Below, piece by piece: positions 4,884 to 37,814 of a DNA stretch of 64,000 nucleotides (its first letter is position 1; every line of letters starts with the position of its first letter). This DNA comes from Raillietiella orientalis. Lineage: Eukaryota. The position numbers and the translations under genes are program-made. Location: NCBI GenBank assembly GCA_036172245.1, contig JAYWIR010000006.1:3968001-4032000 (forward strand). Reading direction: 5' to 3'. Below the pieces are notes generated by a model that searched no databases, had not been told where the DNA came from, and was given only the letters and a program-made list of their open reading frames with translations.

Positions 4884-5060
4884 CCCGTGTTGGAGCCCGT
4901 GCGGTTGCGGCCTCCACGAAAGGTGCAAAACGTTGCATATTCGAAGCCCCCCTAGAGAAGGGTCGACTGAGAATGGTGGATACAGATCGTCGCCCCGCTA
5001 GACGACGCTGGTCGGCCTATTCGAGTGCGGCACTGGTTGACACCCGGTCACGTCGGGTCG
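4884..5060 (+). repeat. Repeat unit with degenerate tRNA-like head, 45-nt conserved core and SL2-like 22-mer (copy 1)
   Basis: Core 4993-5037 is 38/45 identical to 14848-14892. The head has CCGTGTTGG and a B-box-like TTCGAAG. The 22-mer GGTTGACACCCGGTCACGTCGG (5035-5056) is followed by GT. Confidence 0.6.
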
Positions 5061-8000
5061 TTTATTTATAAAAAAATAACCTACATGTCTGTGGCAGGAC
5101 GTTTGATCCTGCCATGTTGCTTATAACTACGAGAAGGGACCTGCCGGGAAGCGGCACGCAGGCCTGCAGGGTTCGCCTCGGCAGCACAGGGAAGGGGACA
5201 CAAACAAAAAGAAAACATAAAACGAACAGTCAAAAAAAGGGGGTGTTCGGGAAGGGATCACTGTGTGCTGGAGGGTGTCCTCTGAATCCTGGTAAGGATG
5301 CCGGCGGATTTCTTTTTCAAGACTATATTGACGCTCTCCTCATGAAGAGGACAGCAAAATAGTTGGCATCCCTGTCGTTCGGGTCTCCTCTGGCGTTGCT
5401 ACATGCAACCACGATCCCTCGTAGGCAGCAGAGTGCTGCTGCTGGGGATGCGGCCGGTGTGAGGGCGTTGCGCGAGAATAGGCGATTCAAAACGTCTCTG
5501 GCGTTGCCGCCGGGGGTTCCAAGGGTCACGGCAAAGCGTCCCCAAAGGGGTCGGAGGGCAACACAGTTTACTAGGAGGTGAGGGAAGGATTCCCGCTCCC
5601 CGCACCTTGCACAGTTTGGGTTCACACGCATCAGTGCCCACAGATGCCGGGGGGCGTTGCACGGGAGGACTCAGTGCACAGCGCATACATCGACTTCTGC
5701 CACTTTAAGGGGAGTGTGCGAGTGTTCATGATTACTGGGGGCCACTGCAGATCTCTTTCCGGAATAATCAGTAGAACGCCCCACTGCAAAAGTCCTCGGG
5801 GTGGGGCACTCGGGGTCGCAGCGTCAGTGAGCTGACCCGTCGTTTACTCGCCCAGTCCTTTCCTTCTTACGGAGATTTCCACAGTGACCTCCCATCTAGC
5901 CGTAAGGCTGCTGCGCATAGGAAACCTCGCACCTCTTCCACGCTTGCCACCCGGATCTTCGCCCACGTGCGCACAGTTTTCTGCAACCAGGCATTCCCGT
6001 TCGCGGAGATGGCACGAGATCCATCCGTTTATCCCTGCCTACGTGGCCATCTGCCGAAGGTGCAGTCCGCCGTGGATGAGGCTGCACGGACGGCGCGCAA
6101 GGTAGGACGCAAGCCACACGCTGCCGGTGGCTTGCTGGACGAGAAGACGTGCAGGTTGGCACCAGGTGGTGTTCCAGAGGTTTTCCACGAGAGTCAGTGA
6201 TCGAAACTGGAGCTGCAACTGCAGGAGCTCCAGCGTCAGGAGAGGTTTAGGCCGCCGTCCCGGCGCGGAGCGCACAAGTCCTTCAGGCGGACTCGGGGTC
6301 TCCTTTTTCCCCAGAGCGCGATCCGGAGATCGTCCATCCGCTTCCTGATGCTGCACGGCAGGGGCAAACAAAAAGCAGGGAGCGGCTCTGGCGGAAGCCA
6401 GGAACCGGACCCCCCCCTCGTCTGGCTGGGATTGCGAGTTGATCCTCCTGGATCCTTCCGAGAATCAAGGGACCCCTTCGGGATTCCCCTCCAATTTTGG
6501 GAATGGGTCCGTCCCTCCCCCTTCCCCTCGGAAGGATCTTCCATCGTGTACCACAGGGCTGGTTGATGCTTTTCCAGAGTGCCACGAAGCGCGCTGCTCC
6601 CATTGGGGAAATCCGGAAGCGTCCCATCTGGGTTCTCTTCAGAAGAAGGAACAAAAAAAAGGCAGTTCCTTGAGGGATTCCCTCCAGGAAAGAAAGAGAG
6701 ACTACCAGAAACCGAAGTGTCCTTCCGGGGAGAACGAGGAAGAAGTTACTTTCGGGGTTCCCCTCCCAAGCGTAAGAGGAACGGACTGCTCCTCCCTCCG
6801 AAGCCTCCCTGAATCCATAGGGTGGTCTCTGAGCGGTGACCCCTGACTTGAAGAGTGACATGCGCCGACGGCGGCCCCAGGCAAGCCGAATCGCACTCTT
6901 CCGCACTCACCGCTGCGACCCCGCTGCTTGCCACAACAGAAGGTGCCCGCCGACGGCGGAACGCCAGAGGGCAGGAAGGGTTCAGTTCTGGCGGCGGTCG
7001 AGGACTGTCGTCTGGACTCTCGAGCACCGCCTGACCTCAGGATCAGCTTCCTCGTCAGGCGAGGCGTTGGCCTACGCTCATTAGGGGTGATCCCGACCCG
7101 TCGTCTTACTGCCTATAGCAACCGGCACCTTCCGTGGGATCTGGTGTGAACCCTCCGTCGAGCGTCGCCGCCTTTGGTCCAGCCCGCAGCGCCCGCACTG
7201 CTTTCCAAGGTTGTCCACCCGGATCTTCCAAAGCGTTTTCCATGGAGGTGGGCAGTTCATACGTTGTGGCACGACCCTCGGCCCTGTCACTCCCAAGATG
7301 TGTGAGAGCTGCCCGGAAGCCGGTGGGTAGTCCGGCGAGGTCCGCCTCGTTAGCCAATGGGAGAGGAGACGGAGAAAAGGAAAGAAGGGAACGAAAAAGG
7401 GCAGCTGATGTTTTCCTGGGTGAGGGGCAGGAGTTGAGAAGGGATCCCTACTCGCTGCCGGGCGGCCTCCTCATCCTAAGCAAGACAGCCCAGAGGTGTG
7501 CGGCACTCCAATTGGAGAACAGGGTGCGTTCCCCTGGCGCAGATTGCGGAGGTACGCGGAACGTGCAAAGAGCGTTTTGATGAATGAGTTGAGCCCACCT
7601 CTGGTTGGACCTGTGGAAAATCGTGGCGGTCATCTATACCTGGGCTCTGCTGTTGTAACGCCGGCTCAGAAGAGTCTCGTCTCCTCGAGAGAGTTCCCCT
7701 CCCTGAGGTCATGGAGAACCCAAGGAAGCGGGCTCGAGTGTCAGCCACACGCCTCACCTCAGTACCTTCTTATCTAAGCGGCAAGAGAAACTATTATCCC
7801 GGGATGGGGAGGAAGGAGGTCTTTCTCTCTTCGTCAGGCTGCCACCTTTCCGAAGGAAACTCCTGGTCTGGAGTGAGCAGGGAGCCCAGGGAGGAAGGTT
7901 TTGCGTCGTCCGTGCTGTGGTCCACGGTTTTGAGAGAAAACACCTCCTAGGAGGAAGGTCCACAAGCCAGCTGGCCGAAGTGTTTACAGGCAGGGACAGG

Positions 8001-8410
8001 GTGTACTGCGAAGGGCGGACCATTGGCGTCCCCAATGAAGAGCTGGTGCGGACAGCACCGTGTTGCCCTTCCAGTCCGCGTCAGCGCTCTTCCGCATCAA
8101 AGATTCCTATGCAGCCAGCAGCTTCGTCGGTGGGCACGTAAGAGTTCCTCCTCGAACTGTGTGAGGTGCGATAGGATCGAGGCGACCTCCCCCCTTCCGA
8201 TGTGGTGAGGTGCCTCGCTCTCGGGACAGACGAGACTGGCCGAGGCTCTCCCGCTCCCCGATGGACTCGGTAAGGCGGTCGTTTCTTCTCCCAAAGCTAT
8301 CTGTGACTGCACCGGTGAGGGTGCTGTGCTCCTTACACGGAAGAACAGATAAGTAGGGAAAAACTCCTAAGGGTGGAGGAGGAAGTCACACTTCGGGACG
8401 CTGACATGGT
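5061..8410 (-). mobile_element. Decayed, 5'-truncated L1/Tx1-like non-LTR retrotransposon (copy A)
   Basis: C-terminal CCHC knuckle PNCARCGERESFPHLLVNC (5560-5631), LCAPRRDGGL (~6250-6280; cf. PKxxGGLG) and QPALWY (~6545-6565; RT thumb). Nucleotide homology to 14940-15330. AATAAA 3' end at 5061-5066. Frameshifts and stops throughout. Confidence 0.75.
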
Positions 8411-8422
8411 GCGTCCGGCACA

Positions 8423-8475
8423 GAGCAAAAGTTAAACACATGGCTGGCACGCGGCCTCGTGTTTAACTTTTGTTC
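8423..8475. repeat. Hairpin with a 14-bp perfect stem (extendable) at the 5' junction of copy A
   Basis: CAAAAGTTAAACAC (8426-8439) and GTGTTTAACTTTTG (8459-8472) are exact reverse complements. Confidence 0.85.
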
Positions 8476-8614
8476 ATTCATTCATTTATTGTTCCTCACT
8501 ATTGTATATGCCCTCTCCGAAACTGTGCGTAGGCATTTCCCTTGACTGAACCTGAACCTGTGACGTTTTCCTCCTTCCCGATTGTATGTTTAGTATTTTT
8601 TGAAAATAAATTCC

Positions 8615-8636
8615 CCTGAGTAACTGGGTTACAATC
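8615..8636 (-). other. SL2-like spliced-leader 22-mer (pseudogene or target-site remnant)
   Basis: Minus strand GATTGTAACCCAGTTACTCAGG vs C. elegans SL2 GGTTTTAACCCAGTTACTCAAG = 19/22, including a 15-nt exact run. No GT donor or Sm site follows. AATAAA at 8605-8610 on the + strand is 4 nt away. Confidence 0.5.
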
Positions 8637-8815
8637 AGTGACGGAGCTTCACCATTTTGCAGACTAATTTAAATTTTAGTTATGAGGGTTTCACTTCTTC
8701 CCATGAGCCTTCTCCCATTGAAGCACCTGGAACTAGGATTCAGTGGAGCAAATCCTCAAAATTATTAATTATTTGTCCTCTAATAACACTGACAACAGTA
8801 CTGACACAACAGTAC

Positions 8816-8845
8816 TGTTATTCGAGTTATTAAACTCGAATAACA
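8816..8845. repeat. Perfect hairpin, 13-bp stem and 4-nt loop, within short AACACTG/AACAGTACTG repeats
   Basis: TGTTATTCGAGTT-ATTA-AACTCGAATAACA. Confidence 0.85.
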
Positions 8846-11844: not shown

Positions 11845-11954
11845 TTAATTAACATAGCAATAATTATGTATTGAAAGCCATATTATTTTTTCTCGTACAT
11901 CCATAATCCCAAGACATTTACAATTTAGGTCCATGAACTTGCAAGCTTGAACTT

Positions 11955-12687
11955 GAACACAAAGTGTGGACTGTCCGTTTGGCCTGAAACCACGATCTTT
12001 ACAGGAGAGGGAGATCCGAGCCACAGTCACCGGGGGTTCAGTTGCATCCGAGCTGTAGTCCGGGAACTGACCATTTCCCAGAATGTCCACTGCGTACCTT
12101 GTAAGCCTGATATGAATTGGAATAGTTTCATATTTGTGAACATTTTATTACTATTTGTGAACCTGACAAGAGATAAACAGCAAGACCAAATACTAAATTC
12201 AGACTCGTAATGTAGATGAAAATCCATTTTGTGCCTGAAGTATTTTCAGCATGTTATTAGCACTGGCTTGAAAAGTACCTTACTTTCCATAAGTCAACAG
12301 ATCATTAGTCTCAAAGGAGATAGAGTCTTGTACAAAAGAGTGTTGAGGGGTTTCTAAGAAAGTTAGGATGAAGTGATTGGCAAATTTAACAAGCTGTTTA
12401 ACTGCAAATAACTGAGAAATCATCAGTATCCAGTATGCATGATGTTTTTCTTTCAACTTGCTTTCTTGGTGGTGGGCGCTCAGATAGAATTGAATGAATG
12501 CATGCAGATGGTTGGTGTACACGTGCTTTTCGTATGCGAAAGAACATTGTTTGTGTTTAAAATACTCTATGGTTTTGTTGCCATATCTGAAAGAAAAGAA
12601 GGAAAAAGAAAAATTCACTCACCAGCCTGATGAAGACCGAACTGTGGGGTGGTGACCAGGTGCCATCAGGACCATGCAGAGCACCAT
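11955..12687 (-). pseudogene. Truncated Wnt-like gene fragment: exon 1 (12687-12623) plus partial exon 2 (~12100-11955)
   Basis: Exon 1 encodes MVLCMVLMAPGHHPTVRSSSG and ends TG|GTGAGT. Exon 2 completes a Trp codon (phase 2) and continues YAVDILGNG...SCKDRGFRPNGQSTLC (C-x9-Q-x3-C, as in Wnt N-termini). No downstream Wnt exons were found, and the frame runs into the 3' region of the survivin-like gene. Confidence 0.4.
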
Positions 12688-13248
12688 GAAAGCGTGAATT
12701 CTTCCGATTTGTGGCGTGCAGACGACCGTATGCGAATTCGCATCTGTTTTCAAACAGCATTTTGATAATAAAGCCGATCCATCTCTACACACAGCAATAA
12801 CAGAAACGCGCCTGTGGCTTCCTTTGCGCCCTCTGCTGCTTGTGGTTCCCGGATGTACCTAAAGTGATTCCCTGCAGCTTTTGTCCGCAACAGCACCGGT
12901 CTGCTGTCACTGTTGCCGTCACGTAGATGTGTGCAACTTTTGGTACTGACCTGGAAGACAGCCGTGGGTGACAGCACGCAGGAAGTGAGTTAGGTCGGGC
13001 GCAAGCGCGTCCCAGGTTTGCAGTCGTAGGAATCATCGCGCCGAAACCAAAGACTGCCTTAAGGCCAGCACTAACTGACTGACTTTGGTGGCACTTGGGA
13101 GTCTTCACGAAACGGCTGACCGTGATGGATCCCCAGGAATCAACGATCAGCTAGGCATTCCTCACGGTTCCCTTTGCCATGTGCAGGTTGTCAGCTTCAG
13201 CGTGTGCTTTGCTGTGATTCGACACTTTGTCAGGGTGTTTTCTTAGAT

Positions 13249-14761: not shown

Positions 14762-14901
14762 GGTCCGTGTTGGCGTCCGCGCGTGGCACCGGGCGTCGCG
14801 GGTTCGAATCTCACCCTGGGAGGAGGAGTGGACGCCGTTTCGAGTCTCCCCGCAAGATGACGCTGGTTGGCCCGTTCGGATGCGGCACTGGTGTAAGCCG
14901 G
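14762..14901 (+). repeat. Repeat unit with tRNA-like head, 45-nt core and partial SL-like motif (copy 2)
   Basis: B-box GGTTCGAATC at 14801-14810. Core is 38/45 identical to 4993-5037, followed by GGTGTAAGCCGG (14890-14901). Confidence 0.6.
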
Positions 14902-14929
14902 ATGTTCCCTTTCACCGGCCGGGATTGGA

Positions 14930-17900
14930 ATTTGACCCTTCGGGAATCAAGAAATCCTTCATGGCTCTTCTCCGGTTTTGAAAATGGAACCCTCCGTGGG
15001 TTACCATGCAGCTGGTTGATACCCCCTTCAGGGGATCGCCTCCAGAGCGCTCTTCCCTTTGGGGAGCACTTTCAGAGAAAATGGGGAGCGTTCCTTCGGA
15101 GTTCTCTTTGGAGGAGGAAACCAGGAGCAGCCCCCACAAACCTGGGGGTCCCTCCAGAGAAAATGAGTCCCTTTGGAACTCCCCTCCCAATCGTGGGAGG
15201 AACGGAGTCCTTCCTCCGGAGCCCTCCTGGATTCGTAGGGGGGTCCCTCCAGGGTTGCCTTCTGACATGAAGAGTTGCACGTCCTTTCGGGTGGTGAGGA
15301 CGGTGCCAAAGAGCTCCGTGACCCCCCCCCTTCCTTCTCCCCATGAGGAGGCGGACGGCTCTTCTGCACTGTTTGGGAAGCAAAAAAAAAAAACCGGAAA
15401 AAAAAGGGCGAGGTTTCCTGTTCCCCCGCGGGTCAGGTCAAGGCCTGACCCGCGGGTGAACCGGCCTTCCGTCCTGGAGTTTCACCTCCTCCGGTCTCCC
15501 GAACGCTCAAAAAGATGCCGCCAACCGGAATTTTCCTGGCCCTCCGGGCGTGCGGCTTCGAGAGCTGCACGAATTGCTTGGAAACGCGACTGGCACTGCG
15601 CAACGGGAGGAGGAGGGGGGAGGGGAAGAATTGCCTGGGATTGCGAGCTCGACCCTCTGCCGTCGAATTACGCGCGCAGAAAGGAAAAAAAAAAAAAAAA
15701 AAACAGAGAAAGGGGAGAAATCTGTGTGCCTGCAGGCAACCTAGTTCGGTCGCTAGCGCTCGATTGCAGAGGTCGGCCGGAGAAGAACAAAGCACCTTCT
15801 GCGTGTGGTTTTGCTTCTTGTGAGCTGTCCGAGAACGCGCCTCCCGGCAGACCCTCGAGCGTTCCGGATCTGGAACCATAGAGGAGACCGCGGAAGATGG
15901 CTCGGCCGGCCACGATGCCGCTCGAAACAGCCGCCGCGTTTCCGGGGCACGCGGGGCCCTCCAGGGATGTCCGGACCATCAACGCTCCTGGCAACTGCAC
16001 CTGCCTCGCTGCCTTCCCAGAAGCAGCGGCGCAGGACGACCCAGGGTTGCTTCGCGCGCGCCGCAGTTTTCGCTCGTCGCCCTCAGCCACCGCCTTGCGT
16101 GACCACCCGCCACCTCTTCGCCGCCAGAACGTCCGCTTCCGCGGAGGAGGGCTAGGGTCGCGGTCAACCCACCGCGGGCGGATGCCGCCGAACGTCTGGA
16201 GCGCCGCCACTCGAGTGCATGCGAGCGCCAGTTGTGGCGGCTCCTGGAAGCTGCAGGGGAACAGGGAAAGTTCCACGTGCGGCGCCAGCAACGAGGAGGC
16301 GCAGCCGGCCAGCAGCGAGTAGAGCCCCATTGGGTAAAGCCGCGCAGTGGCGGACTTCTGGCCGACGGAGGCGTGCGGAAACCGCCGGACTGCTGATGCA
16401 ACCTGGCGGGAGCAGCCGAGTTCAATGGACAGTCGCCATGGTGAGCGGCGTCCCGGCTGCTGGAGGGGGCGCGACCACCGGCCGGCATTCCCGCGTGGGC
16501 CCCTCCCTGGTCCGTTCAGGCACGCAGCATGCCGAGAGGAGCCGGGACGACACGGAGGGGCGTCTCTGGGGAATAAGGAGGGGTGGTCACCCCCACCCGG
16601 AAGTGATTTGCCCTGAGGCCGGCGAGACGACTCGCGGAAGAGGAGGCGCAGGGTCCAAAGGAAAGGAGAGGAAGGAGAGTCTCGGGATTGACCCCCTCCC
16701 CACCCGGAAAACAGGAGGACCTCCGGGGGTGATCCCAACGGGCCTCGAAGACGGCAGAAGGTCAGAGAAACGGGCCGAGCACCCCGTCCTTCGCTGCCTC
16801 TCGACCATCCTTTAAACGAACCATTGCAATCTTTTCCCCCGTCCTCTCGCAGCGCGCGACAGCTCTCCCTTGACAGGAAGCGACCGGGAGGGCTGGCCCC
16901 CGGCCGCCTCAATGCCTCGCGAACCTCGAGGAGGCGTCCTTTCCGGCTCTCTGCGCGCGCGAGAGTCTGCCGCGTCCCGGTGGGTCTCCCAGACCCGCGA
17001 GGACCGCGCCAGACTTCCCTCTGAGCACCCTTCCCACCCAGGAGGGACAGTCCCCGATCCTTTCGCCGGGAACGCCGCCCTTACGGCGGCGGTCATCTTC
17101 GGAAACGCCGGCGCACGAATCTCGAGCTCGCGGAGCTTCGATGCGCCTTCCGACCTTTGGCGCGGGAGCTCCCTGCTCCCGTCGCCGAGGAACGGAGGCA
17201 GGAGCGCAATCCCTCCCCCCCTCCAATCCCTTCCGAGGTCCTCACGGGTCGGTGGAAGGCTACCCGCAGGTGTCCGGGCAAAGTCGACGCCCGGGGAGGG
17301 GTGATGCCGCGCGGTTCGAGAGAGCGCCAGCCACCTTCCTGACCGGAGGAGTGCCGGGGAGGGAGTGCTTTCCGCGGAAGAGCCGCTGCGGGGAACGGTC
17401 CAGGGAGAAGCTGGAGAAGCGCTCCTCACTCCGGTTCGAAGGCCAGCAGGGGATACCTCGCTTTGTGCGTGTGCTTTCTTTCTTTTTGAGAAAGGAGGGG
17501 AAGAGGGGGGCTCGACCGATAGTCCTTTCCAGGCTTTCCTGAGCCTCCCGGGATCTTCTTCCATCCATACCCTCCCTTTCGAAAACACCTCGGAGAGGGC
17601 GGAAGCGGCAGGGCTCGACGGTTCTCGAACCTTCGCGCCGCGTGTGAGGACCGAAGGACGCACACGTGGGCCCGAGAAATCGAAATCATTCATCGCGCGA
17701 ACGAGGCAACAACAGGCAAAGGCTTTCGCCGAGGTTCCCATGGCAACCGACCGGCCGCCGACCCGGCAGCATGGGAGGCATCGGCAATGGAAGGAAGAAG
17801 AACGTTTGGGTAATTAAAAGGGCGGGTGGCGGGAACCGCATGGAAACACAGGGTGGAAGCAGCGGGGTCCGCCAGAGGGGGGAACCTCGTGCTCGAGCAA

Positions 17901-25000: not shown

Positions 25001-26307
25001 TTTTTTTTTTTTTTTTTTAAATGGCGTGCCCGAATATTCCCGAAAGCTTGGAAGGACGAACCTAATCACATGGGGAATGTAGATCCGTTTTGTGCCGAAG
25101 ATCACGTAAGTAGATTCTGAAAATTGCACCTTGTTAGTCGTGAGCTCAGCTCGTTACCCACCAAGAGCCGCTTTGAGTGTTCCGAGAAGAGGGCCGTACA
25201 AAGGAGGAATCGCGTGCGAAAAGGATTTTTCATGGCAGTTGATTGCGGGAATCTTCCGCCGCGCGTCATCCTCCAACAACGTGATGACCTACGTCATTCC
25301 TCCGCAGGCTGCTTCCATTTTCTCCGTTGACCTTTCCTTAACGACCGCCTTTTCTTTGCTGGTCGTTTGGCGCGGTCCGAAGAGGGGAGCCCTGACCGAG
25401 CTTTCTTCTTCCTTCCTCCCCCCTCCCTCCGTCCCCCTTTCTCCTTTGGCTCGCCACACCAGGCGTCGGGAAATTTTCCCCTTTTTTTTGGGGGGGGGGG
25501 CGGGGAAGGGGGGGCCGCCGTCTCTCGTCACCCGTCCCCGCTTGCGGGAGGGGGCGCGTCCAGCTCCCGGTCGGGCCCCGCGCGAGGCGGGCGGTCGTGC
25601 GGAGGGTCTCGCGCGTGCGAGTCGCTCCGTGCATGGGCGCCCACCTCGCGCGGGAGACGGAACCGCTCTCTTCCGCAGCAGCGGACGGCCCAGCATCCGC
25701 TCTTTCCACGCCGCTGAGCTTCCACCGTTGGCTGCCTCGGTCTCCCGACACGGGGCGCTCGTTAGCTGCGGTGCGCTCAGTTTTTTGGTTCAACGGCGCA
25801 GCCTTCAATTCGAAAACAAAGGGGGAGGACAAGGAAGGAGTGGGAACTCACGGAAAAGAAGGGGGAAATGCATCCGCGTCTGTTGGCGTTTGCCTTGGCG
25901 TAACGCGCGCGGCTCCGATGTCGGGCGTTTCCTACCCGGATGGTTCCTTTTCCCTTCATGCGTGGGAGGGGCCGAGGAGGGAGGGAATCCTGCACCACAG
26001 CTGCCGTCGCAAACCCTCCGTCATCTGCTCACTTTTCGCCGGGTTGTCGAGAGTCCGGGGACATCGCCCGGTGTATTCTTCGTTCCTACCCCTTCCCCTC
26101 CTCGCCCTAGCTACGAGGGTCTCGTCGACTCCCCCGCCGCCCCGCACTCCGTGCTGCTCCTTGCGCGAGCGCCTCCAGGTCGCGGCCGGCAGAGGGCAGG
26201 GGGGAGAGGGAGGGGCCAGCGAGCAAGCGGGCGCCCTGGAGGGAGGCGGGGGGTCGGGTCGGGTCGAAGCAGGGACCCTACAGATTGTCCTGTTTCAGCC
26301 CACAGGC

Positions 26308-29300
26308 ATGAACGGCTCGCCAAACGAGCGAACGGCGGCCGAGGGCGGCGTCTGGCGGGTGGGTCTGGTCAGCGACCAGGGGAAGTACCTGACCGCAGAG
26401 ACGTTCGGCTTCAAGATCAACGCAAGTGGCAACTCTTTCAAGAGAAAGCAGACGTGGTGCCTGCTGCCCTCAGGGAGCGGCGGTTGCGTGTGCCTGCGGT
26501 CCCACCTGAACCGCTACCTCGCCGTCGACCAGTTCGGGAACGTGGCGTGCGACTTGACCGACCGGGACGCCGACGCCGCCCGCTTCCAGCTGTCCTTCGC
26601 CCCGGACGGCCGCTGGCTCTTCCGCAACCTGGCCAAGGGCTACTACCTCGGTTGCGCGCCCGAGAAGGTCGTCTGCGAGTCCAAGAATCCCGGCCCCCGC
26701 GAGCGCTGGACCGCCCACCTGGCTTCCAACCCCCAAGTGAACGTGCGCTCCGTCGGCAGGAAACGCTTCCTGCGCCTCGACCCGGCGGCGGAGGGCGGCG
26801 GTGGCGGTGAGCTGCGCGCCGACGCCAACGTCGCCTGGGGGCCCGATACACTCTTCGCCCTGGAGTTCCGCGACGGCAAGTATACGGTCCGCGCCTCCAG
26901 CGGCGACTTCCTGAGCAGCGGCGGGGAGCTCCTGCCGCAGTGCTCCCGCGACTGCCTCTTCGTCCTGGAGTACCACGGCACGCAGTTCTCCCTGAAGGAC
27001 GTCTGCGGCAACTACCTGGCCCCGGTGGGGTCCAAGGCCGTCCTGCGGGCACGATCCCGCACCGTGACCAAGGACGAGCTCTTCCAGCTGGAGGAGACCT
27101 CGCCGCAGGCGTGCCTGGCCTCCTGCATGAACAGCCGATACGTCTCCGTCAAGCAAGGTGAGCGCGACAGCGAATGCTGCCCCCCTTCCCCCCCCGTCTT
27201 CGCAGCGACCGGGTGACCGCCTCGGGACTCCTCTCTGCCCACCCTTCCACCTCCTCCTCCTCCACCTCACAGGAGGAGGAAGGAAAACGCGGCCCGAGAT
27301 CCGCTGATTCCCTTTTGGAAGTCCCGCCCAGCCCGTTTCCCCCGGGAGGCGGCAGGCCCCGCCATGACGCGGAGAGGAACCGGGACCTCCTCGGCAACGG
27401 GCGCGCGGGGAGGGACGGGCGAAGTTTCCAAGGAGCTCGCATAGTATCGATGTCTGAGGAGTTTTTCCCCACTTTCCCCGTAGGTGCCCACCCCTCCCTG
27501 CGTCCCCTCGTTTTGCGCCTTCCTTCTCCTGTCCTTCTCCTCTGGCCGCCCGTCCCCGAGGGAAGCAGCCTCCCCTAGGCCAGGTCGACGGGGGAAGTCC
27601 CTGGGAGGAGGGGCGTGGAGCCTCCGCATCATTCGTCTTCCACCGTCCTCTCTCGAAGGACCGCCGCGTTGGTGCACTGGCGTCTCTCCCGCGTCCTCGC
27701 GGCCGCCCCCGTTCCTCCAGCTTGCGCGCGGGGTGAGCAGGATGGATGCACGCCGGCATCCCTGCCTGCTCCCTCCCTTCCGTTCACTCCGGGTACTTTG
27801 TTTTTTGTTTTGCAAGCGCAGCTTCCCCGTCTCGATCCTCCGCCTCGGAAGGCGCTGCACCTCATCCTCGGTCGCTTGCCCTTCCCCCTCTGGATCTCAG
27901 GGATGAGCCCGAGGCGATCCACGCCCCTCAGCCGCGGCTGCCCGGGCTCCTCTCCCCTTCGCCGACAAGGTGCGGGGTTGGGCGTGGCGCATTCCGGCGA
28001 AAGGGCCATACGCGCACTCCAGCCCCGCGCTGGGCGTCATCATGGGAACGGCTCGAAATCCACGTTCGCGCCGTTGGCTGCGGCAGACGTCGGAGGAGCT
28101 CTCTGGTTAGGGGAAGGGGGTGTACCCCTGTGGAGGTGAGAGGCGACTCAAGGCACGCGGACCGCCCGAAACCTCGTCGGGCGGGTGGCTGCTTGCTCTC
28201 GGGTTGGGGGTCATCGGGGTCCATCCGAGCGCACCCCGCGCGCTTCTTCCTCCGCCCCGTCGGCTCTAGGGTGAATGCCGAGCCGGAGGCACGCTGGTGG
28301 GAAGTCTTCGGGCCTCCCGGATAAGCGCGCGGCCAGCTCGCCGGCAGCTTTCGTCGTCTGGGTCGCACCTGGTGGCGGCGGCTTCCACGCGGCAGCGGGC
28401 GCGGCGCAGCCCTGCTGCCGCCGTGGGGGAGGAAGGGAGAGCACGCGCTCCCAGCCGCCCGGCACGCCGGGTTCTCCCCTCCCCTCGCCAGCCGACGAGG
28501 AGGGCGGGGAAGAGGCGCGCGCGTCCCGTCCCTGCTCGTCCGTGCTACTGGGGGTGTGGCACCCGTCCGGAACCCTGAAGTCCGAGGGGGGCGCGCAGAG
28601 GAAAAAACTCCCCCGTATTCCCTCCAAACGTGCCACTTTGTTCCCAGGAGTCGACCTTACGGCGAACCAGGATGAGATCGGGGAGTCGGAGACCTTCCAA
28701 TTGGAGTTCGTCCCGGACGTGCAGCGCTGGTACATCCGCACGATGCAGGACAAGTACTGGGTGCTCGAGGCCAGCGGGGGCGTGCAGGCCTCCGGCAGCG
28801 GAAAGTATGGCTCCCCTCCCGCCTCTTCCCTCCCCCCTCCATTCCCGCGCCGCCACAGCCTGCGCCATCGCAGGTGTGCCGCTCAACTCTGCCTTCCCGG
28901 GACGCCCCGGCGAAGTACAACATGTCTTGTCCCCGATCGATCCCCACAGCTCCCGGAGCGAGCAGCGCCGCCGCCCTCGGCGGGAGCGGTCGCGCGCGCG
29001 CGCGTCGGCGGCAGTAGTGCTGGCGAGGGGACCGGCGACGGGCTCGACGGTGCCCTTGAAATCCCTTCGGAATCGCGGGAAGCTCCCGGAAGGCGGCGGA
29101 GGAGTCCCTCCCCTTCCTCCTCATCCGTGGCGGCGGTCGGTCCCTCATGCCCTCGAGGGGTGGAGGGACGCCCTCAAGGGCATCTCAGCTCCCGCGAGAG
29201 CGCATCCCCCCCGGAGCTCGTGCGCGCGGATGGGTTTCCCGTACCTCCGGAGCGGTCCGCTCGGCTGCCGCATCCACGTGGATCCGCCCGCCTTCCGAGG

Positions 29301-32300
29301 CCCGGTAGCGCTGCCGGGCGAGGGGGACGCCGTCCCTTTGGGAGCGGAGGGGAACCCGACCCTTCTTCCCCCTTCCGCTGGCGGAAGCACCTCGCGCCCT
29401 GCCCCTTCGATCGATGCCGGTCCAACCAACCAGCCCGCGTCCCGTAGATGCCGGGGAAATTCCTGGAATGTGGGGTTCCCCCGCCTCGGAATGCGCGGCA
29501 TCACCTTGCTGTTTTTCCCTGCGGTTCTCGACCGCCTTGGCACGTGTTGCTGCACGTTGCCGGAGCAACCGCTTCCTCTTCTCCCTCTCCCACTTCCTCC
29601 TCCTCCTGAGGTTTTTGCCTCCCTGGCACCCGCTCATCCGTCTCGGGAGCCCCCAGGAAGCGCCTCCGCCGCCTGTAACTTGCGCGGGGAAAAAAATGGC
29701 GGCGGCGCCGCTTCGGGGACAAGATCATTCAGCTGACAGTGGAATCCGGGTTAGACGACTCGGGGGTGGGGGGTGGGTGGGCGTCTACGTGGGATCTGCC
29801 GGAGGCGGCTGCTGTCAACTCCGCTGCCCTCGCTGTCCGCCGGTGGGGAGTCGCGGGGGAGTGGAGGGGCGACCACCCGCAGTCACTTCCACGGTATCCG
29901 GTGCGACCGGCACCCTCCTTCCAGGAACGCGGACAACCACTTCGAGCTGCTGTGGGGTCCAGCCGGGAAGGTGCAGCTGCGCGCCGCCAACGGCAAGTTC
30001 GTAAGCACCAAGAAGTCCGGCCATCTGTACACCAGCGGCGCGGAGCCGACCCAGGACAATGCGCAGTTCCATTTCTACCTACTGAACAGGTGGGCACCCC
30101 CTCCCCCCCCCCGCGCGTGCACCCCGCTCGCGAGTGACAGCAAGCGTGCACGCGCATGAATGCTTGTACACATTTCTGCGCGCACGCACGCAAACACATG
30201 CACGCACCTGCGACGCTACATGCGCATGCGCAGCGTTCGCTCGTGTGCCGCACTCGCGCGCGTGCACGCGTTCCAAAGTGCGTGCGCACGTGTACACGGA
30301 AGTGCACGCACGCACATTCACGCATCTGTGTATGCACCGTTACGTGCTCATGCGTGCATCCAAGCGTTCTTGCATGTGATCGCGTGCGCACTTGTGGAAA
30401 AGCGTGCAAGTGCGCATGCGCAGGAAAGGGAGATCCACTTGGTTCCCCTTTCCTGCACCTCAAACCGAAAGGCTCCTGGGTCCGCTCCACGTGGACCACG
30501 ATATCCACGCGGAGCTACTTTTTTTTTTTTCTCGTGTTGGCGAGGTCCCGCTGCCTTTCGAACGCGAAGGAGGCCCCTTGCCCGACCGAGAACGCGCGCC
30601 CTTGTCCGCCAGAGGACGCGAGCCCCGATGTCACCGTGGCAGCAGGGGGAGGGGAACATTCCCCGCCTTACGCTACCCCGAGGGCATCCGGGAACAGCTC
30701 CTGGGCGACGCAACATCCAAGAGTGTTGCGCGTCCCGGGTCGTCTTCGAGGTGGCGCGCCTGTGGCGGTGCCGATGAAACCGTAGAATAAGGAGACTTCG
30801 CTCACGGCAGCGCGGATGACGCCTTGGTCCGCCTGAGGAAGGGCAGGGGGGGGGGGGATGGGGTCTAAGCCCGCGCGTGTGCGCGACTGAAGTTCTGGGC
30901 TGGCTCTCCTGCCTTCCTCTCGCGTCTTCGGGATTCGGAAACTCAACGGCTCCGCTCCGGGTGGGGAGGGTCCAGTTCCTTTCGTACGGTGTTCGCGTGA
31001 CCCCGACCGCACGCGGCCGCCTCTGCACCGGGAAAAGGGCCCCGGCCGTTCCTTCCTCGTTGAAATCGCGGCAGCGCTTCCCCGAGAGCGCGCCGGACGG
31101 GGCCTTCTTCCGCTCGCGGCTGGCATCTCTTGCCGTCCTGCGCACCTCGCGCAGCCTTTCCGAACACTCTGCCGCGAGTCCCCCCTGTCGCCGAGGTGCG
31201 CATCCGGAGGTGGGCGCTCGGCGGTGGCTCCCGTGCTTCTTCCTGCCCTCCGGTTGCTCCGATGCGAATTTGGCACCTCCGCCCTGCTTGAATTTCGCAC
31301 CGGCCGGCACTCGTCGGGCCGGGATCCACTTCCAGCACCTCCCGAATTTCCCAGACTTCGGAGCGCCAGACTCCGAAGTTACCTCAGCTGCCTGCCGTCA
31401 GGAGCGCGGGAATGAGATCCGTGCCTGTTGCCGTTGGCAACGCGTTCACCCACAATAATGTGCGCCTGCTGCTGCTGCTTGAGCCTACGCGACCATGTGC
31501 ATAAACGTCTCTCCGTACATACGTTTACATATACACACACATATATATATACACGTACGACGCATGCCTTATCGAAACGCGTATGCGTGTTGCGTGTGTC
31601 CATTAAAGCAGAAGATGCATCCGGGAAAATGGCCGCGCTCCGCTCCTCGCCGCGACGATTCATCCCGCCCGGAGGAGGCAGCTGCCGTTCGGGTTGCCAT
31701 CTCCCTGTCTCCCCTGCGCCACGATCGGCCCACGCCCCCAGCCGCCTGCCGGGCGCGTGGGGCCCTGCCGGTGCACCGTGAGCGGCATCTCTGACCCCGA
31801 AGCGCCTCTTCCAGGCCTCTTCTGATTCTCAAGTGCGACCAAGGATTCGTGGGCGCGAAGAGCGGCGCCGGAGCCCCGAAGCTGGAGTGCAACAAGGCGT
31901 CTTACGACAGGGTCTACATCGAAAGAGGCGACGCAGGGAGGCTGTTCTTCCGAGGTACGTATTCCCCTTGCTCCCGGTTCTCCAAGTCCCGGCGCGAGCA
32001 AGACGCCACGCGGCGAAGGAGTTACGCGGTGGTCTCGCGCGAGGGGAGCGCGCGCCGTGCATCCGCGGGATGTCAAGGGCCGCGCCACAGCCGCGCTTTC
32101 CGCAGGTCCGCCCGGCGAAACGCGCCCAACCGGCGGGATGGCGTCTGGGCGCGACTGCGATTCCCTCCCCTTCGGGCACTTCCCTTCTTCGGCGCGGGGC
32201 GATCCCAAGAGATCCGACGGGGAAGGGGGAAAAGCCGTTTCCCGGGAAGCGATCTCCGGGGCACAATTCCCAACGTCCAACCCTGGCAGGGAGAGGCGTG

Positions 32301-34690
32301 GCTCCTGATGCCGCTGTCTTGTGGCAATCGTGTCGATCGCCGCACCGCTGTGGACGGTGGCGCGCCACGAAGCCGCAGGCGTTCTTGCAGCCGGAGGTGG
32401 GGAGGTGGGCATGATGGACGAGCCTCGGCAGCGTCGCACCGCGTTAGCTTCCCTAAGAAGGGTGGCGAGGAAGGCGCCCTACCGGGCTACTGAAGACACA
32501 GCAACACCCTAAAGGCGACTGCGCGGGCGGTCTGGTCCGCACCCGGATCGCTCGGTCTCCCCGTCCATCATCCCGTGGAGCGCATGCGTGAATTCTATCT
32601 CTCGCAATTCTCTCTCGTGGGCCGCGGGTTCTCAAACCGCGCAGTTTCGGCTGCGACCCCCGTGAGCCCCGTAAGTGGCAGGGGTCGGTCCATCGACCTG
32701 ACCTCAGTGGCGTCCACCGTTTGCGAACGTTCACTCGGTGGTAGGGAAGGCCGAGTCGAGTTCCTCCTCCGGTGCCTCACGGCTTCCTGGAGCACCGACG
32801 ATCGCACAGCGACAGCGAGGAAGAGCGCCAGATGGCGCCAGAAGGGAACCGGCGGCGTGAAAGGGGAGGAAGCGGCGCGCGCCTAGTCACCGGTGCGGCA
32901 GGAGAAAACATTTATTTCCTTCGGAGAGATGGTATTTCCCGGATAGCCTCCTCGTCCTGCGACGGCGACCAGGGATCCTCCGCTTGTCAGCCACTCCATA
33001 CGGTTCTGCCGCGTGTGCCGCGAGAGCGCTCTCGACCTCTGGCAATGGGGACCGCTGCAGTCGGGGTCTGGGCTCTCGGCACAGGCCGACTGACGCAGCT
33101 GCCGGCAGGGGCGCTTCACGCACGCGCCGAGGGGTAGGGGCGCAGCGCAGCCTGCACGCAGGGTGGCCGGTCAGGGCTCGCGGACAGACCGGCGAGGGAG
33201 GGCCATCTGGGCGCGCACGTGTGGGACGGCATCGGCTCTCGCCATCCCTGCTCAGCTTCCGCTGTGAGCCCAGCCGGATAGAGGGGTCGGCGGGGGGTCG
33301 TCCGACTGACCAGAGAACGCCTTGCTCGCGATCGAGAGGGACGGACACGCGGATTCGGGCTGCGCTCGCGGCCTCCCCGGTACTCCATCGTCGTCCCTCC
33401 CTCGGATCCCAGCACACGCGGTATCCAACCGCAGGAACGGCGACTTCCGATTGGCAGTGAAGGAGGCGAGGCCGCCGGGGGATGGCACGGTCGCCTCAGG
33501 CGGTGGCTCTCCGCTCCGGCTGCATCCAACACCGACGCTGTTCCGCGAAGGGATGCAACGCACGTCCCGCGCGAACGCGTCGGTGTTCGCCCTCGGCGAC
33601 CGGGAGCTCACGTGGCCCTTGAACCAGGACTAGGTGGGCTTTCCGTGCTGCATCCCCATTAGACCAACTCCCTCCTCCCGGCCCCCGTGAGCCCTGCGGC
33701 ATCTTCTCGTAAGGCATCCCTAGTCAGCGAAGAGGGGAGGCGTTGGTAGGAGGCGTCGGTGCCTAGACGCGAACCCGCACTGACCCGCGTTCAAAGCCGC
33801 GTGATAGGTTTGCATCCCGAGCTCATTTTTTCCCGATGCTGCTGCCGCCGAGCTGGCGGTGGCAGCGGCGCCAGGCACCGCGTAGAGCCATCGATCGGCG
33901 TAGACGCAGCTCGAGAAGCAAGCAGCTTCCCTCTCTTCCGCGCGTAGCGCACTCGCTCGTTCTGCCCGCCGCAGAGTAGCGTTGGGCGTCCGACGCCGCT
34001 CGGCAGCCACACGCCCTCTCGCCGCCACTGCCGCGCGTGCGTGCGCTAGCAACTTCGCACGTGCGTGAGTGGGGACCTCTCAAAACGCGGGCAGCCTGAG
34101 CCTCCCTCACGCTGCCACCGCGCGTGCGCGCTGCACCGCTCTGTATCCGCTCTGTACGCGGTTGGATCCATGTGCTGGGTTCGCTCCCAGGCGGTCAGTA
34201 CATCTTTCCGGTTCTCTTGAGCACTCGTTTCCTCGGCGACGAACGGCCGCAGATGGCACCGGGAGACGTTCCGGAAAGCCAGGAGAGCGAAAGTCGGACG
34301 GCTTTCGGTTGCCTGCTCATGCTCCACCGCGTTTTCACGCACTGCGGCCTTCGGGAGTCACGCTCGCTCCCCAGGCGGCTCTCCAGGGAGGAGGGGCATG
34401 GACTGTCGCCCCCCTTTTCTACATAAAGTATTCCGAACTCTGTCAGCGCTCTCGTCCAAGCCACACGTCTTTTCCTCCGGTCCACAGGTGCGGATGGGCG
34501 GTTCTGGCATCGCGTCGCGGACGAGATCCATGCAGATGCCGAGGACCCGGAAGGATTCTACATGGAGGTGCTCAGCCCTTCCAGGATGCTGCTAAAGACT
34601 GCCTGCGGCAAATACCTGACCGCTGGGACGAATGGCCGGCTCTCCGCCGTCTCGGACGACCGCAACATGGCTACCAAGTGGGAATACTAG
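26308..34690 (+). CDS. sn: Fascin (singed) actin-bundling protein, 504 aa; exons 26308-27157, 28648-28804, 29925-30089, 31815-31954, 34488-34690
   Basis: GKYLTAETFGFKINASGNSFKRKQTW (regulatory Ser region), YVSVKQ|GVDLTANQDE, LRAANGKFV, NRPLLILKCDQGFVG and terminal KWEY*. The exons sum to 1515 nt with GT-AG junctions in phase. Confidence 0.95.
30140..30422. repeat. Degenerate alternating purine-pyrimidine (CA/CG/TG) microsatellite in fascin intron 3
   Basis: About 280 nt of GCAC/GCGT/GCAT/ACAC units. Confidence 0.8.
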
Positions 34691-34949: not shown

Positions 34950-37788
34950 CGGGTCTTCCGGCAGGCAGACGGAGGCGCGGCCCGTCTGCCGCGAACCAAG
35001 AACCTCTCCCGTCAGTGGTCGCGGCGAGCGAAGACCTGAAGGAAAAGCAGTGGCGCCCACTCCTCCTGTCTGCCCTTCCAAACCAGGACGCTCCCTCTTC
35101 CCCTCGGAACGGCCTGGTCCGTCGAGCCTCGGGAGAGGGTGGGGCGCTGCAGCCTGCCGGGCCTCTCCTCCGCAAGGGGCCCACAGAGGAACGGCCCTTC
35201 TTTCTGAGGATCCGGAGCCGTTGGCAGAGCTGGCAGAGGCGCACGCTAGAACCACTCGGGGCCTCGCCTGCACCTGCGACGCTGTGGCAGAAGAGGCGAT
35301 GCACAGACCCCCGCTCGCGGCCTCGCCTCCTTCGCTGCGGGCGAATTGGTTAGGCGAGGAGTCCCTCTCCCGCATTCAGGGCAAACGACCGGACGCCCCA
35401 ACAGCTCGAGGGGCAGGCAGACAGGCCGCGTCGGGCAGGACGGGCAGCCAGGGGTTTGCGCCCTCCGCCACCCGCCAGGCGTGGCAGTGCGTCGATCCTG
35501 AGCGCCCCTTTCTGCAAAACGAGCGGCCATCTGGTAGCAGACGTTCGCTCGATGCACGCGTCTCCGCTCTGGAGACTACCGCTATTTACAGGCGCGCGTT
35601 GACTCCACGGTCTGATTCCAGGGAGGGTCCAGACAACCCTTGGTCTTCATCGACACTCTGCGGTTGGAGGCTGCGGCTTCAAGGAAACGCCTTCCGAGGT
35701 GCTGCCTGCTCCTTCGGCAGGCTGCCAGGAGCGACGGCCTCCCTAACGCGACCCAGGAACCCGTCGGAGAAAGCGGAGCACGCGGGCCGCACACGTCTGG
35801 GTCCCGAACGCGAGCCTTAGCGCGAATTTCCTGGGTGACCTTGGGAAGCGCCTCGGCTGTTTGCGTACGGTTTCTCCCGGGAGCTGGGAGGAACAGAAGA
35901 ACATGCAGCGGAGGAGTGCAGGAACTCCGCCAGCGAACAGCTGGCGGAGTTCCTTTCGGGGTGCTTTGGGGGGAAGGGGTGTGGGGAGACCAGACGGAAA
36001 AAAACAAAACGTGCAGGCACCACGAAGGACGGGTTGCCAGTCTACGCGGCCACCCTCCGTCACTGAGCTTCCAGCTCCGCGTGGTAGGATCCCGGCGAGG
36101 CGGCCTTCCTCCTGCCTCAGGCAGCACTCGAGAGGACTGTTGCTTCTGGCGGCAATCCGTCCGGGTCGAGGGGACGCCGCACCCCCGTCACCAGTGCAGG
36201 AGTTCGTCTGCAGGGTTCCCTCCCTGGATGAGGGGCACCACATAGGTCTAGAAGCGGATAAAGGATGGGTTCTCCCACGTCGAGCAGTTCGCTCCGCGAG
36301 GAGAGGGAAGAAGGGTGCACCGCGACGGCTCACCCGTGACCTCGTCCCCTGAGCCGTTCCCATGTGATTTTCCCCCTTGGCGGCCGAGCGAGTACTGAGC
36401 GGCGACTAGGGCCTTCCCTCGCAGGCGGGAGTCTCTTTGAGGCGGCGGCCCTGCAACCAGGGCATGGGAACACCCGCCGCCCTGGCCAGGTACTGGACTC
36501 CCCCCGCCATCCGGAACCTCGCCTGATTGGTGACGCCTCCGCTCTTCAGGGTAGAGCTCAAGACTCCTTACTTGAGATGGAGCCATTGCACACGCCATCC
36601 ACAGGGACAACCATGGTGATCGCCGCACATTCTGCCTCGCCCAGGCAGGCAGGCCCTACGTTTCCCTAGGGTTTACGGCCAGTCGAACGCTGGCGGAGGT
36701 GAAGGTGACTTCTGGGAGCCCATGCTTTCCGTTCCATTCGGCGAGCTGGCATCGCAGCACTAGGGTCGATGCCTCCTGGATGGGCCCAGCTCCTAACCGA
36801 AAATTCAGACAAACCTCCAGGCAAAGACGTGGGTCTCCCCAACCCTTTTACTCCAGCCGCCTCCCTAGCAAGTTGCTCGAATGTGCGGCTACGCAACCCC
36901 GCGCACAGATCAGCATCGACATCGCCAGGAGTCCACTGTCCTCATAGTCAGGCGGACGAAAGAAAGGAAAAAAAAATCGGACGATTCGCTACGTCCCCTT
37001 ATAATCCTCTGGCATGCTCTAGGTCACCATCCCCTGCAACGTCTCATACAGCAACACTCCGAAGCACTTTACCCCCACAACACTAGCACAGTGCGTTAGA
37101 ACACCCGTTCTCACTTCAAAGCGCAACAGCATGCGCGGACTATCGGCACACTATACCGATACACGCCTTACACACCACAACACAAGGCCGTCCCCCTTCG
37201 GTGGAAACAGGACGCTTTTCTGCTGGTGCATTGGGGTCTGTATTGCAACCAGCGCGCGCACCTGCTTTCCGGGGGAGTCGCGCCCCCGAACTGTGCAAAA
37301 TGCGTAGCGGTGGAATCGCTCCCGCACTTGCTATTCGACTGCGGTGCCCTCCAGGGACTGTGACGGTGGCTGTCTTCAGCGCTCCTGCATCCGGGGGACA
37401 CGCGTGGCGGCCTATCTCTTGGAGCGGTCGTCGCAATCATCTGCTGCGTCCGCGCCATTGTCAGGGCCCTCCACATTGCAGCTGCGAGCGGTCCCAACAT
37501 CGGTTCCCGACAGCGCAGCCTGCAATCTGCAACCGACTGCCGGGTGGCCACACCTCGACGAAGAAGTGAGCATGGAGATTGCCGGCATTCACCGCCGGTT
37601 CTGAGAATAGGAACGGCTGAAACTGCAGACCCCCTATCCCCACCCGCCTACTATTTTTATTTATTATTGTCCCTTCCCTGCCATTCTGAACCATCAGTAT
37701 GCCCGACCTGCGTGTCGGGAAACCCTCCCCCTTAACTTCTGTTCCCCTTGCCTGGAAACTATGTTCCCAGATGATTTCTTATAATAAA
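34950..37788 (+). mobile_element. Decayed L1/Tx1-like non-LTR retrotransposon (copy C)
   Basis: KQWRPLLL (~35045; cf. NWRPISLL), zinc knuckle PNCAKCVAVESLPHLLFDC (37286-37342) homologous to copy A, and AATAAA at 37783-37788. The 5' boundary is approximate. Confidence 0.7.
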
Positions 37789-37792
37789 CATA

Positions 37793-37814
37793 CCGGCGTA
37801 ACTGGGTAACAAAC
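37793..37814 (-). other. SL2-like 22-mer abutting the 3' end of copy C
   Basis: Minus strand GTTTGTTACCCAGTTACGCCGG, 16/22 identical to C. elegans SL2. It is 4 nt from AATAAA. Confidence 0.45.

Follow-up and report, generated by a model that had tools for sequence, protein, structure and literature searches.

The 3' ends of LINE fragments in the window, here the whole stretch of 64,000 nucleotides analysed from Raillietiella orientalis, raise the question of whether a retrotransposon equipped with an apurinic-type endonuclease (APE) can take spliced-leader (SL) RNA genes as its target. The first-pass annotation had described L1/Tx1-like retrotransposons whose AATAAA is followed at three loci, after 4 nt, by the antisense of a 22-mer resembling the nematode SL2 leader, and had proposed either that an APE element inserts antisense into SL2-like genes or that the element itself carries an antisense-SL tail. 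The answer favoured here, with moderate confidence in both of its parts, is that one old L1/Tx1-type LINE family has probably left five short fragments in the window (A, A2, S, C and D'; Table 1), all of them dead 3' pieces truncated on the 5' side, and that the 22-mer belongs to the element, as the conserved terminus, without poly(A), at which the family ends, with no SL RNA gene involved. All of the readings weighed below rest on five decayed copies within one window.

The common 3' junction

The position and spacing of the three junctions were confirmed in fragments A, S and C (Table 1). A fourth junction, absent from the earlier description, was found in degenerate form in fragment D' at 58672-58702(+), where AGAAAC is followed after 4 nt by a 21-nt version of the motif; D' matches the profile of the LINE 3' UTR (E 9.9e-10), and an nhmmer alignment places D' 58599-58703 on A 5034-5141 (E 3.3e-4). 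Pairwise alignments of the junctions, scored against shuffles, gave z values of 5.1 (A-S), 5.5 (S-C), 3.3 (A-C) and 2.9 (A-D'), so that a single repeat family, and not independent coincidence, accounts for the three or four sites, which are its homologous ends. This common junction is seen directly in the alignment, where homology among the copies is unbroken from the 3' UTR through AATAAA to the 22-mer and then ends, and where the flanks of A, S, C and D' past the motif are no more alike than shuffled sequence in five of the six pairs.

The terminal block is common to four of five otherwise diverged LINE ends, no A-run comes after it, and no tandem repeat was reported by TRF at the junction loci. 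A 17-nt core pattern, searched with up to two mismatches, matched the four LINE ends only, and no free-standing full core lay apart from a LINE end anywhere in the 64 kb; the pattern was built from those same four copies, so the search proves the absence of free copies and nothing more. An identical junction in four of the five ends would also suit a sequence-specific LINE, a reading considered below, and the fixed position has likewise been counted in favour of an SL gene target. Unrelated flanks in five of six pairs weigh against sequence-specific insertion, which could then have only a very short target.

Table 1. Features of the window, with positions counted from its first nucleotide
Feature	Positions	Strand	Parts and remarks
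LINE fragment A2	4518..4905	-	ORF2 tail ~4728-4829; hairpin 4552-4570 in 3' UTR; T28 run; AATAAA 4518-4523
Putative 12-nt target-site duplication of A, 3' copy	5023..5034	-	part of possible 24-nt duplication 5023-5047
LINE fragment A, 5'-truncated, ~1.34 kb	5035..6377	-	insert limits from A/B alignment; CCHC knuckle 5563-5613; ORF2 tail to ~5326; hairpin 5093-5113 in 3' UTR; AATAAA 5061-5066 (TTTATT on +); spacer 5057-5060; terminal 22-mer 5035-5056
Duplication flanking A, 5' copy	6378..6401	-	12-nt core 6378-6389; tail-like 12 nt 6390-6401
LINE fragment S ("stub"), 5' limit uncertain	7978..8636	+	decayed knuckle ~8089-8205; AATAAA 8605-8610; 4 nt; antisense 22-mer 8615-8636
B, paralogue of the DNA on both sides of A (repeat X)	14768..15285	-	junction-equivalent 14878-14901
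Host context: coding exons of fascin/singed homologue	26305..34687	+	
Target-site duplication of C, 12 nt, 5' copy	37180..37191	+	adjoins start of LINE protein homology
LINE fragment C	37192..37815	+	knuckle 37292-37342; AATAAA 37783-37788; 4 nt; antisense 22-mer 37793-37814 plus 1 nt
Target-site duplication of C, 12 nt, 3' copy	37816..37827	+	begins 1 nt past 22-mer
LINE fragment D', new here, 3' UTR only	58599..58702	+	AGAAAC 58672-58677 replaces AATAAA; spacer 58678-58681; 21-nt motif 58682-58702

A LINE family and its 3' terminus

The description of these sequences as L1/Tx1-like holds only in part: what is left of them is an L1/Tx1-type CCHC knuckle and a 3' UTR, the window contains no reverse transcriptase (RT) or endonuclease domain, and the sequence formerly listed as copy B is without LINE features. 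Identity with LINE C-termini is observed directly. The intact CX2CX7HX4C knuckles of A and C are the only two CCHC-pattern matches in six frames; the Pfam zf-RVT model itself matched only faintly (E 0.083), and a profile of the two knuckle ORFs found 15 proteins at E <=1e-3, with zf-RVT present in 14, RVT_1 in two, and Exo_endo_phos, RVT_1 and zf-RVT together in one. Only the C-terminal 50-100 residues of these proteins have a match in the window. The distant full-length relative P0055 carries an Exo_endo_phos (APE) domain, an RT and a knuckle, and in tblastn searches with this and two further RT-bearing proteins (P0065 and P0067) C-terminal parts only were matched in the window, residues 1106-1203 of P0055 falling on A 5706-5434. 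Fragment A2 is matched by P0052 (E 4.9e-6), and S shows weak knuckle matches (E 0.013-0.6) together with a match to the 3' UTR profile at E 3.9e-5.

No RVT domain was detected in 149, 144 and 150 ORFs, a scan that left out 36 small ORFs at 48-64 kb, nor in 12 read-through frames, and Exo_endo_phos is absent from the window. As the copies are 5'-truncated, the RT of the family could not be seen there. The label of an L1/Tx1-like APE element is supported only indirectly, through the zf-RVT proteins and the one full ORF2 that the profile finds, and not by the window copies, which have neither RT nor APE; intact members of the family may be expected to have encoded both, judging from these relatives. 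A word-based protein search for longer relatives of the knuckle ORF of A returned none at E <=0.01, and a metagenome scan with P0052 produced 598 pattern matches, of which none was confirmed. The junction pattern gave one metagenome match, on a contig resembling bacterial coding DNA, and this was taken as chance.

An intact 3' region of this family would run from the ORF2 CCHC knuckle through a 3' UTR of ~260-440 nt with a stem-loop to AATAAA, 4 nt and the 22-nt terminal block, without poly(A). The AAUAAA would fix the RNA 3' end ~26 nt further on, where the block stops, and reverse transcription at the nicked target would then start from this defined terminus, recognised by the RT, to yield an insert bounded by a target-site duplication of ~12 nt. 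The stem-loop lies 20-45 nt upstream of AATAAA and, on a hand reading, differs between A and A2 by two compensatory pair changes that preserve it, as is typical where selection acts on the 3' end of a LINE. RNAalifold, applied to four tails, returned five pairs and no covariation.

Such a terminus is reminiscent of the "stringent" LINEs, whose RT recognises a defined 3' end, as in UnaL2 of the eel and the CR1 and L2 elements. The window family shares with these a conserved terminal block, a 3' UTR stem-loop, the lack of poly(A), and 5'-truncated copies with an exact common 3' end. The elements of the L2 and CR1 groups end in short tandem repeats, whereas here the knuckle is of the L1/Tx1 type and AATAAA stands 26 nt from the end, and recognition of that end by the RT would be by analogy.

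Fragment A2 stands against an element-borne terminus. It is the one LINE 3' end of five without the motif: no recognisable 22-mer follows its AATAAA, and its significant homology to A (0 of 300 shuffles) ends at AATAAACG, as expected of an element that stops at this point, with the 22-mer belonging to the flank, and as an off-target insertion of a sequence-specific LINE would end. A 13-nt deletion in A2 is a candidate that would also account for the missing motif. A deleted tail in A2 was convincing by eye, but not significant against shuffles. On balance, the evidence supports a LINE family that is undescribed and long dead, and whose 3' terminus is defined and lacks poly(A).

Insertion sites and target preference

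The sequence called copy B does contain a partial motif, at 14890-14901, but it is not a LINE, and no knuckle, LINE protein or LINE 3' UTR match was found in it. A 4905-5044 and A 6379-6866 are colinear with B and flank a 1.3-kb insert in A, so that B is the empty-site version and A the filled one, a pair that is likewise observed directly. Missing from B are AATAAA, the spacer of 4 nt and the motif's proximal 9 nt. The distal motif part in A (GGGTGTCAACC) resembles, by eye, the remaining LINE ends with their GGGT, 2 nt and CAA; in B and in the 5' copy at A the corresponding sequence is GGCTT.C.CC.

Three further candidates around A and B were rejected. A fragment A of 2.46 kb, drawn from a 10/11 repeat at 7497-7507, failed because the would-be RT-coding stretch (~6750-7500) has no RT signal. 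The flank shared by A and B is unsupported as a tRNA-derived SINE with a GGTTCGAATC box at ~14800, ARAGORN having found no tRNA. More tail-like motifs at ~7205-7260 and 7498-7540 were convincing by eye and not significant against shuffles.

The site of A also furnishes an argument for a second explanation, in which the LINE is sequence-specific, as in the Tx1 clade, and its target is a dispersed motif of ~25 nt rather than an SL gene. Such a motif may lie in the tails left by earlier members of the family or within repeat X. About 24 nt would then be duplicated, and the distal half of the 22-mer, with the AGTGCCGCA-like block that follows, would be target-derived or templated by read-through RNA. 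B 14878-14901 aligns both to A 5023-5047 and to A 6379-6401, and the repeat around A is therefore readable as 24 nt present on both sides of the insert, in which case the distal 13 nt of the motif would come from the target, and this tells against an element-borne terminus. By hand counts, the identities of the two halves of this repeat do not separate the 12-nt from the 24-nt reading; B and the 5' copy in A are, moreover, paralogues, and so amount to one observation, not two.

Fragment C offers a further view of the boundary. Its duplication, seen directly, is an ordinary one of 12 nt whose copies match at 11 of 12 positions, where 0.04 such cases are expected by shuffle, and the downstream copy begins 1 nt after the 22-mer, which places the motif inside the duplicated-target boundary. 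The 12 nt beside the motif agree well, but the preceding 13-15 nt agree at only ~7/13 with an indel (hand count), unlike one 26-28-nt duplication made at once. In the search for a repeated target, the insert in A proved to have the same 12-24 nt at either side, and the flanks of S, C and D' proved unrelated to A or B; a candidate motif for the nick site is no commoner than chance, with 22 occurrences where 19.5 are expected. Immediately upstream of the 5' duplication of C, the sequence (CGCCTTACACA) agrees by eye with the site in B (CGGCTTACACC) at 9 of 11 positions, with CG.CTTACAC in common, and this likeness hints at a preferred target.

In Xenopus, the Tx1L element inserts into another transposon with a duplication of ~23 bp, which the possible 24-nt duplication inside a repeat at A/B recalls. 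The window family also resembles the Tx1 clade, which we take to include Tx1L, Keno, Mutsu, Kibi and Koshi, in an ORF2 C-terminus with a zf-RVT-type CCHC knuckle, in a nearest full-length relative with APE, RT and knuckle, and in a precise 3' junction without poly(A). Unlike that clade, it has heterogeneous flanks and, in C, a duplication that begins after the motif, and no small-RNA gene or microsatellite target was recognised in the window. The Tx1 and R1 clades are counted among the main target-specific groups of APE elements in the accessible part of one account (PMC4640811). Sequence-specific insertion is nonetheless judged rather unlikely, and clearly less probable than an element-borne terminus.

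Likeness to a spliced leader

A third explanation takes the 22-mer to be the leader exon of an SL2-like SL RNA gene, into which an APE LINE inserts antisense ~4 nt inside the intron, or whose sequence it has picked up as a tail, by read-through of a master copy residing in such a gene. The identities on which this was based, 13/22 (A), 19/22 (S) and 16/22 (C), were reproduced, those of A and C by hand count and all against SL2 as quoted in the first-pass annotation. S is the one match at <=3 mismatches, which 0 of 100 shuffles reach; the copies other than S match at 12-16/22 only. A GT follows the 22-mer directly in A, but in C only when a leader of 21 nt is assumed, and in S not at all. By eye, the sense strand of repeat X has U-runs and then hairpins in both A and B (e.g. 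AATTTTGG at 6493-6500), but folding of the flanks on the sense strand is no stronger than in shuffled sequence (z -0.48 to +0.28), and B, the sole LINE-free version, shows only part of the motif, lacks a donor where one would be expected and has a fold z of -0.17. No SL1, SL2 or other SL-like Rfam match was obtained at the loci, even at E <=10, and nothing reached the gathering threshold.

The surroundings of the motif are equally unlike those of an SL gene. Homology among A, S and D' runs on upstream of the supposed leader start, as judged by eye in the alignment. The 5' junctions, covered for A and C, show no SL gene remainder: that of C is a plain 12-nt duplication of DNA after the motif, and that of A runs into repeat X, colinear with B. 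The copies lie in ordinary gene surroundings, C being ~2.5-3.1 kb downstream of the last coding exon of the fascin/singed homologue, rather than in an SL gene array. Antisense insertion of an APE LINE into SL2-like genes finds no support in the Rfam result, the unconserved GT, the unrelated flanks, the position of the duplication at C, or the incomplete motif and lack of a fold signal in B. The other proposal, an antisense-SL tail, survives in its first half, as an element-borne tail fits most of the evidence; no evidence links that tail to a real spliced leader.

Among known systems, the SL-gene-specific retroelements NeSL-1, CRE, SLACS and CZAR are superficially similar, in that a retroelement end adjoins a leader-like 22-mer. 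They have a restriction-like endonuclease and occupy real, conserved SL gene arrays, whereas the present family shows neither an SL gene feature nor an array, and its relative is of the APE type. Compared with nematode SL2 RNA, the motif has 12-19 of 22 leader identities, on the antisense strand of the LINE, but no Rfam match, conserved donor, fixed-place Sm site with flanking stems, or fold signal; the host genes in the window look arthropod rather than nematode. Douris and co-workers are said to have described SL trans-splicing in copepods in 2010. SL trans-splicing is reported in amphipods in the accessible part of PMC3282834, and SL exons are retroelement targets for which the accessible part of PMC4640811 names only lineages with a restriction-like endonuclease. 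Literature hits for the 11-nt motif core were nematode SL2 primers and unrelated primers, with no arthropod leader among the titles. Given a post hoc comparison and only 12-16/22 in the other copies, the SL2 likeness of the 22-mer is, in our judgement, probably coincidental. An SL RNA gene as the source of the 22-mer is highly improbable, and only a very slight chance is given to an APE-type L1/Tx1-group LINE of an arthropod-like host being truly sequence-specific with a target, or a read-through tail, from an SL2-like SL RNA gene family.

Were SL genes involved after all, they would be a new target class for APE LINEs, with the first SL-directed element to use an apurinic endonuclease, and would point to an SL2-like leader and trans-splicing outside nematodes, in an unexpected animal. 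For annotation, the 22-nt block with its AATAAA marks the ends of this LINE family, B and its partner A form a filled/empty pair able to date an insertion, and fragment C puts an AATAAA (37783) downstream of the fascin gene. A tail-like preferred target would be a small but testable point on how elements of the Tx1/L1 type choose their sites.

Terminal junctions of a decayed LINE family

The first-pass annotation reported three loci at which AATAAA is followed after 4 nt by a 22-mer whose reverse complement resembles the Caenorhabditis elegans spliced leader SL2, and all three (the LINE 3' fragments A, S and C) are borne out at the positions tabulated here, together with a fourth, degenerate junction (D'). 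Against the SL2 22-mer quoted in that annotation, S is identical at 19/22 positions, a match seen in 0/100 shuffles of the window, and hand counts give 13/22 for A, 16/22 for C and 12/22 for D'. The junctions are mutually homologous (z 2.9-5.5 against shuffles), and the repeated spacing is therefore an inheritance from one repeat family rather than three coincidences.

LINE-end junctions and host gene features in the window
Feature	Coordinates	Strand	Composition or remark
Junction A	AATAAA 5061-5066; 22-mer 5035-5056	minus	4 nt spacer
Junction S	AATAAA 8605-8610; 22-mer 8615-8636	plus	4 nt spacer; 22-mer antisense
Junction C	AATAAA 37783-37788; 22-mer 37793-37814	plus	4 nt spacer; 22-mer antisense
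Junction D'	58672-58702	plus	AGAAAC, 4 nt, 21-nt version; degenerate
Fascin/singed gene exons	26305-27159, 28596-28796, 29893-30090, 31810-31956, 34487-34687	plus
fn3/Ig gene	~38.8-48.3 kb	minus	convergent; in GC block

A pattern search of six frames finds exactly two CCHC knuckles, 5563-5613(-) and 37292-37342(+), each correctly oriented and 440-500 nt upstream of its own AATAAA. The profile of the two knuckle ORFs, run against 1.84 billion representatives, retrieved 15 proteins at E <=1e-3, with zf-RVT in 14, RVT_1 in two, and Exo_endo_phos, RVT_1 and zf-RVT together in one (P0055, 1250 aa). Only the C-terminal 50-100 residues of these proteins match the window by tblastn, at A and at C, along with a weak match at 8077-8262(+) that is the decayed knuckle of S and a match of the retrieved protein P0052 at 4728-4829(-) that leads to a further fragment, A2, with its AATAAA at 4518-4523. 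A 3' UTR profile recovers five ends in total (A, A2, S, C and D') and no others. By Pfam, neither reverse transcriptase, endonuclease nor knuckle was found in 149 ORFs of at least 140 aa, in 144 ORFs of 70-139 aa whose starts lie in 2-25 kb, or in 150 of the remaining 186 ORFs in that size class (all but 36 at 48-64 kb); the sole yield of 12 frames read through stops with X was a faint zf-RVT match at A (E 0.083). The retrotransposons of the earlier description are thus real, but as old, 5'-truncated 3' stubs of an L1/Tx1-type family. To judge from distant relatives, the family probably encoded an APE endonuclease and a reverse transcriptase.

Upstream of AATAAA by 20-45 nt lies a 7-bp stem-loop in A (5093-5113(-)) and A2 (4552-4570(-)), which on hand reading is kept through two compensatory pair changes and has a similar counterpart in a similar place in C; RNAalifold on four tails detected no covariation. 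A stretch at 7264-7479 resembles the 3' UTR of A (5089-5292) on the same strand ~2.2 kb away (nhmmer E 2e-9), which suggests a sixth LINE remnant; together with A2, A and S it would make up a same-family cluster within 4 kb. Its tail region bears no significant likeness to the motif. Within the 3' UTR of A2 lies T28, which on the plus strand is an uninterrupted run of 28 A (4576-4603) and may have come in as the tail of a different insert, retroposed in the opposite orientation.

Origin of the terminal motif

An element-borne tail, one of two readings offered earlier, is favoured over a flanking origin of the 22-mer. The copies are similar without a break from the 3' UTR through AATAAA to the 22-mer, where similarity stops: past the motif, A, S, C and D' give six flank pairs, of which five align no better than shuffles. 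The exception, S against D' (8671-8766 and 58816-58914), is gappy (z 5.6 against shuffles) and lies at unequal distances from the junctions, 35 and 114 nt, and may derive from an older shared repeat. Within the window, a 17-nt core pattern built from these copies has no match at <=2 mismatches away from LINE ends. A 12-nt direct repeat frames fragment C (37180-37191 and 37816-37827, 11/12 identical; 0.04 expected); its upstream unit adjoins the first LINE-like residues and its downstream unit starts 1 nt past the 22-mer.

The tract at 14768-15285, previously called copy B, gives no knuckle, LINE protein or 3' UTR profile match and cannot be retained as a LINE. It runs colinear with the DNA on either side of A (4905-5044 and 6379-6866), so that A represents a filled site and B its empty paralogue; in B neither AATAAA nor the spacer is present, and the motif lacks its proximal 9 nt. 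A less likely alternative, though one of some weight, is a family preference for a tail-like motif, possibly older tails of its own, with a ~24-nt duplication made on insertion. Such a duplication accompanies insertion of Tx1L. The repeat around the A insert allows two readings, one of 12 nt (9/12) and one of 24 nt that takes in the tail-like CCGGCTTACACC; A2 is clearly related to A as far as AATAAACG (0/300 shuffles) and then diverges; and the DNA upstream of the duplication at C looks by eye like the site in B. These three points weigh against the element-borne tail.

Host genes and neighbouring repeats

In this eukaryotic window a block of 60-69% GC, which holds both the fascin/singed and the fn3/Ig gene, spans ~14-48 kb (34 kb) amid surroundings of 30-40% GC, an isochore-like and unusually sharp contrast; 11 kb of it (14-25 kb) has no Pfam match. 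The best named relatives of the fascin/singed gene are arthropod (~54% identity), and the host genes look arthropod. The AATAAA of C stands on the sense strand ~3.1 kb downstream of the last fascin coding exon and faces the 3' end of the fn3/Ig gene, and could be a candidate host polyadenylation signal. Elsewhere, an inverted pair of ~151 nt at 92% identity (11955-12105 and 13242-13392, ~1.1 kb apart), with ORF-level similarity around it (11929-12207(+) against 13233-13613(-)), could mark the ends of a DNA transposon (terminal inverted repeats) or have arisen by inverted duplication.

Spliced-leader likeness and relation to known LINEs

That the 22-mer is tied to a spliced leader is very improbable; sequence likeness to SL2 is the sole pointer in that direction. 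Rfam returned no family across the whole window at the gathering threshold, and nothing SL-like at the loci at E up to 10. GT follows the 22-mer in A only. Read on the sense strand, the flanks of A and B show no more folding than shuffled sequence (z -0.48 to +0.28). A, S and D' appear by eye to be similar even upstream of the supposed leader start, contrary to what one would expect of the 5' end of a transcript. At the 5' junctions of A and C, the sequence is duplicated target and not the remainder of a small RNA gene. The proposal of an APE LINE targeting SL genes accordingly finds no support from Rfam, GT, folding or 5' junctions. The repeat X, common to B and the DNA either side of A, carries conserved CCCTTCGGG-type hairpins (6425-6540 and 14918-15010, plus strand) and a U-run followed by a hairpin (AATTTTGG in A, GGTTTTGA in B) that is snRNA-like by eye; this stretch has no Rfam match and no fold signal.

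Trans-splicing is known from some arthropods other than amphipods. It has been reported in an amphipod as well (PMC3282834). SL exons are among the LINE targets listed in PMC4640811, where the APE-bearing target-specific groups are the Tx1 and R1 clades and the SL-specific lineages named (NeSL) have restriction-like endonucleases. The family described here resembles Tx1-like elements in knuckle type and in its precise, poly(A)-less 3' junction. In having a defined 3' terminus it behaves as certain other LINEs do, and one of its 3' UTR hairpins is kept between A and A2.
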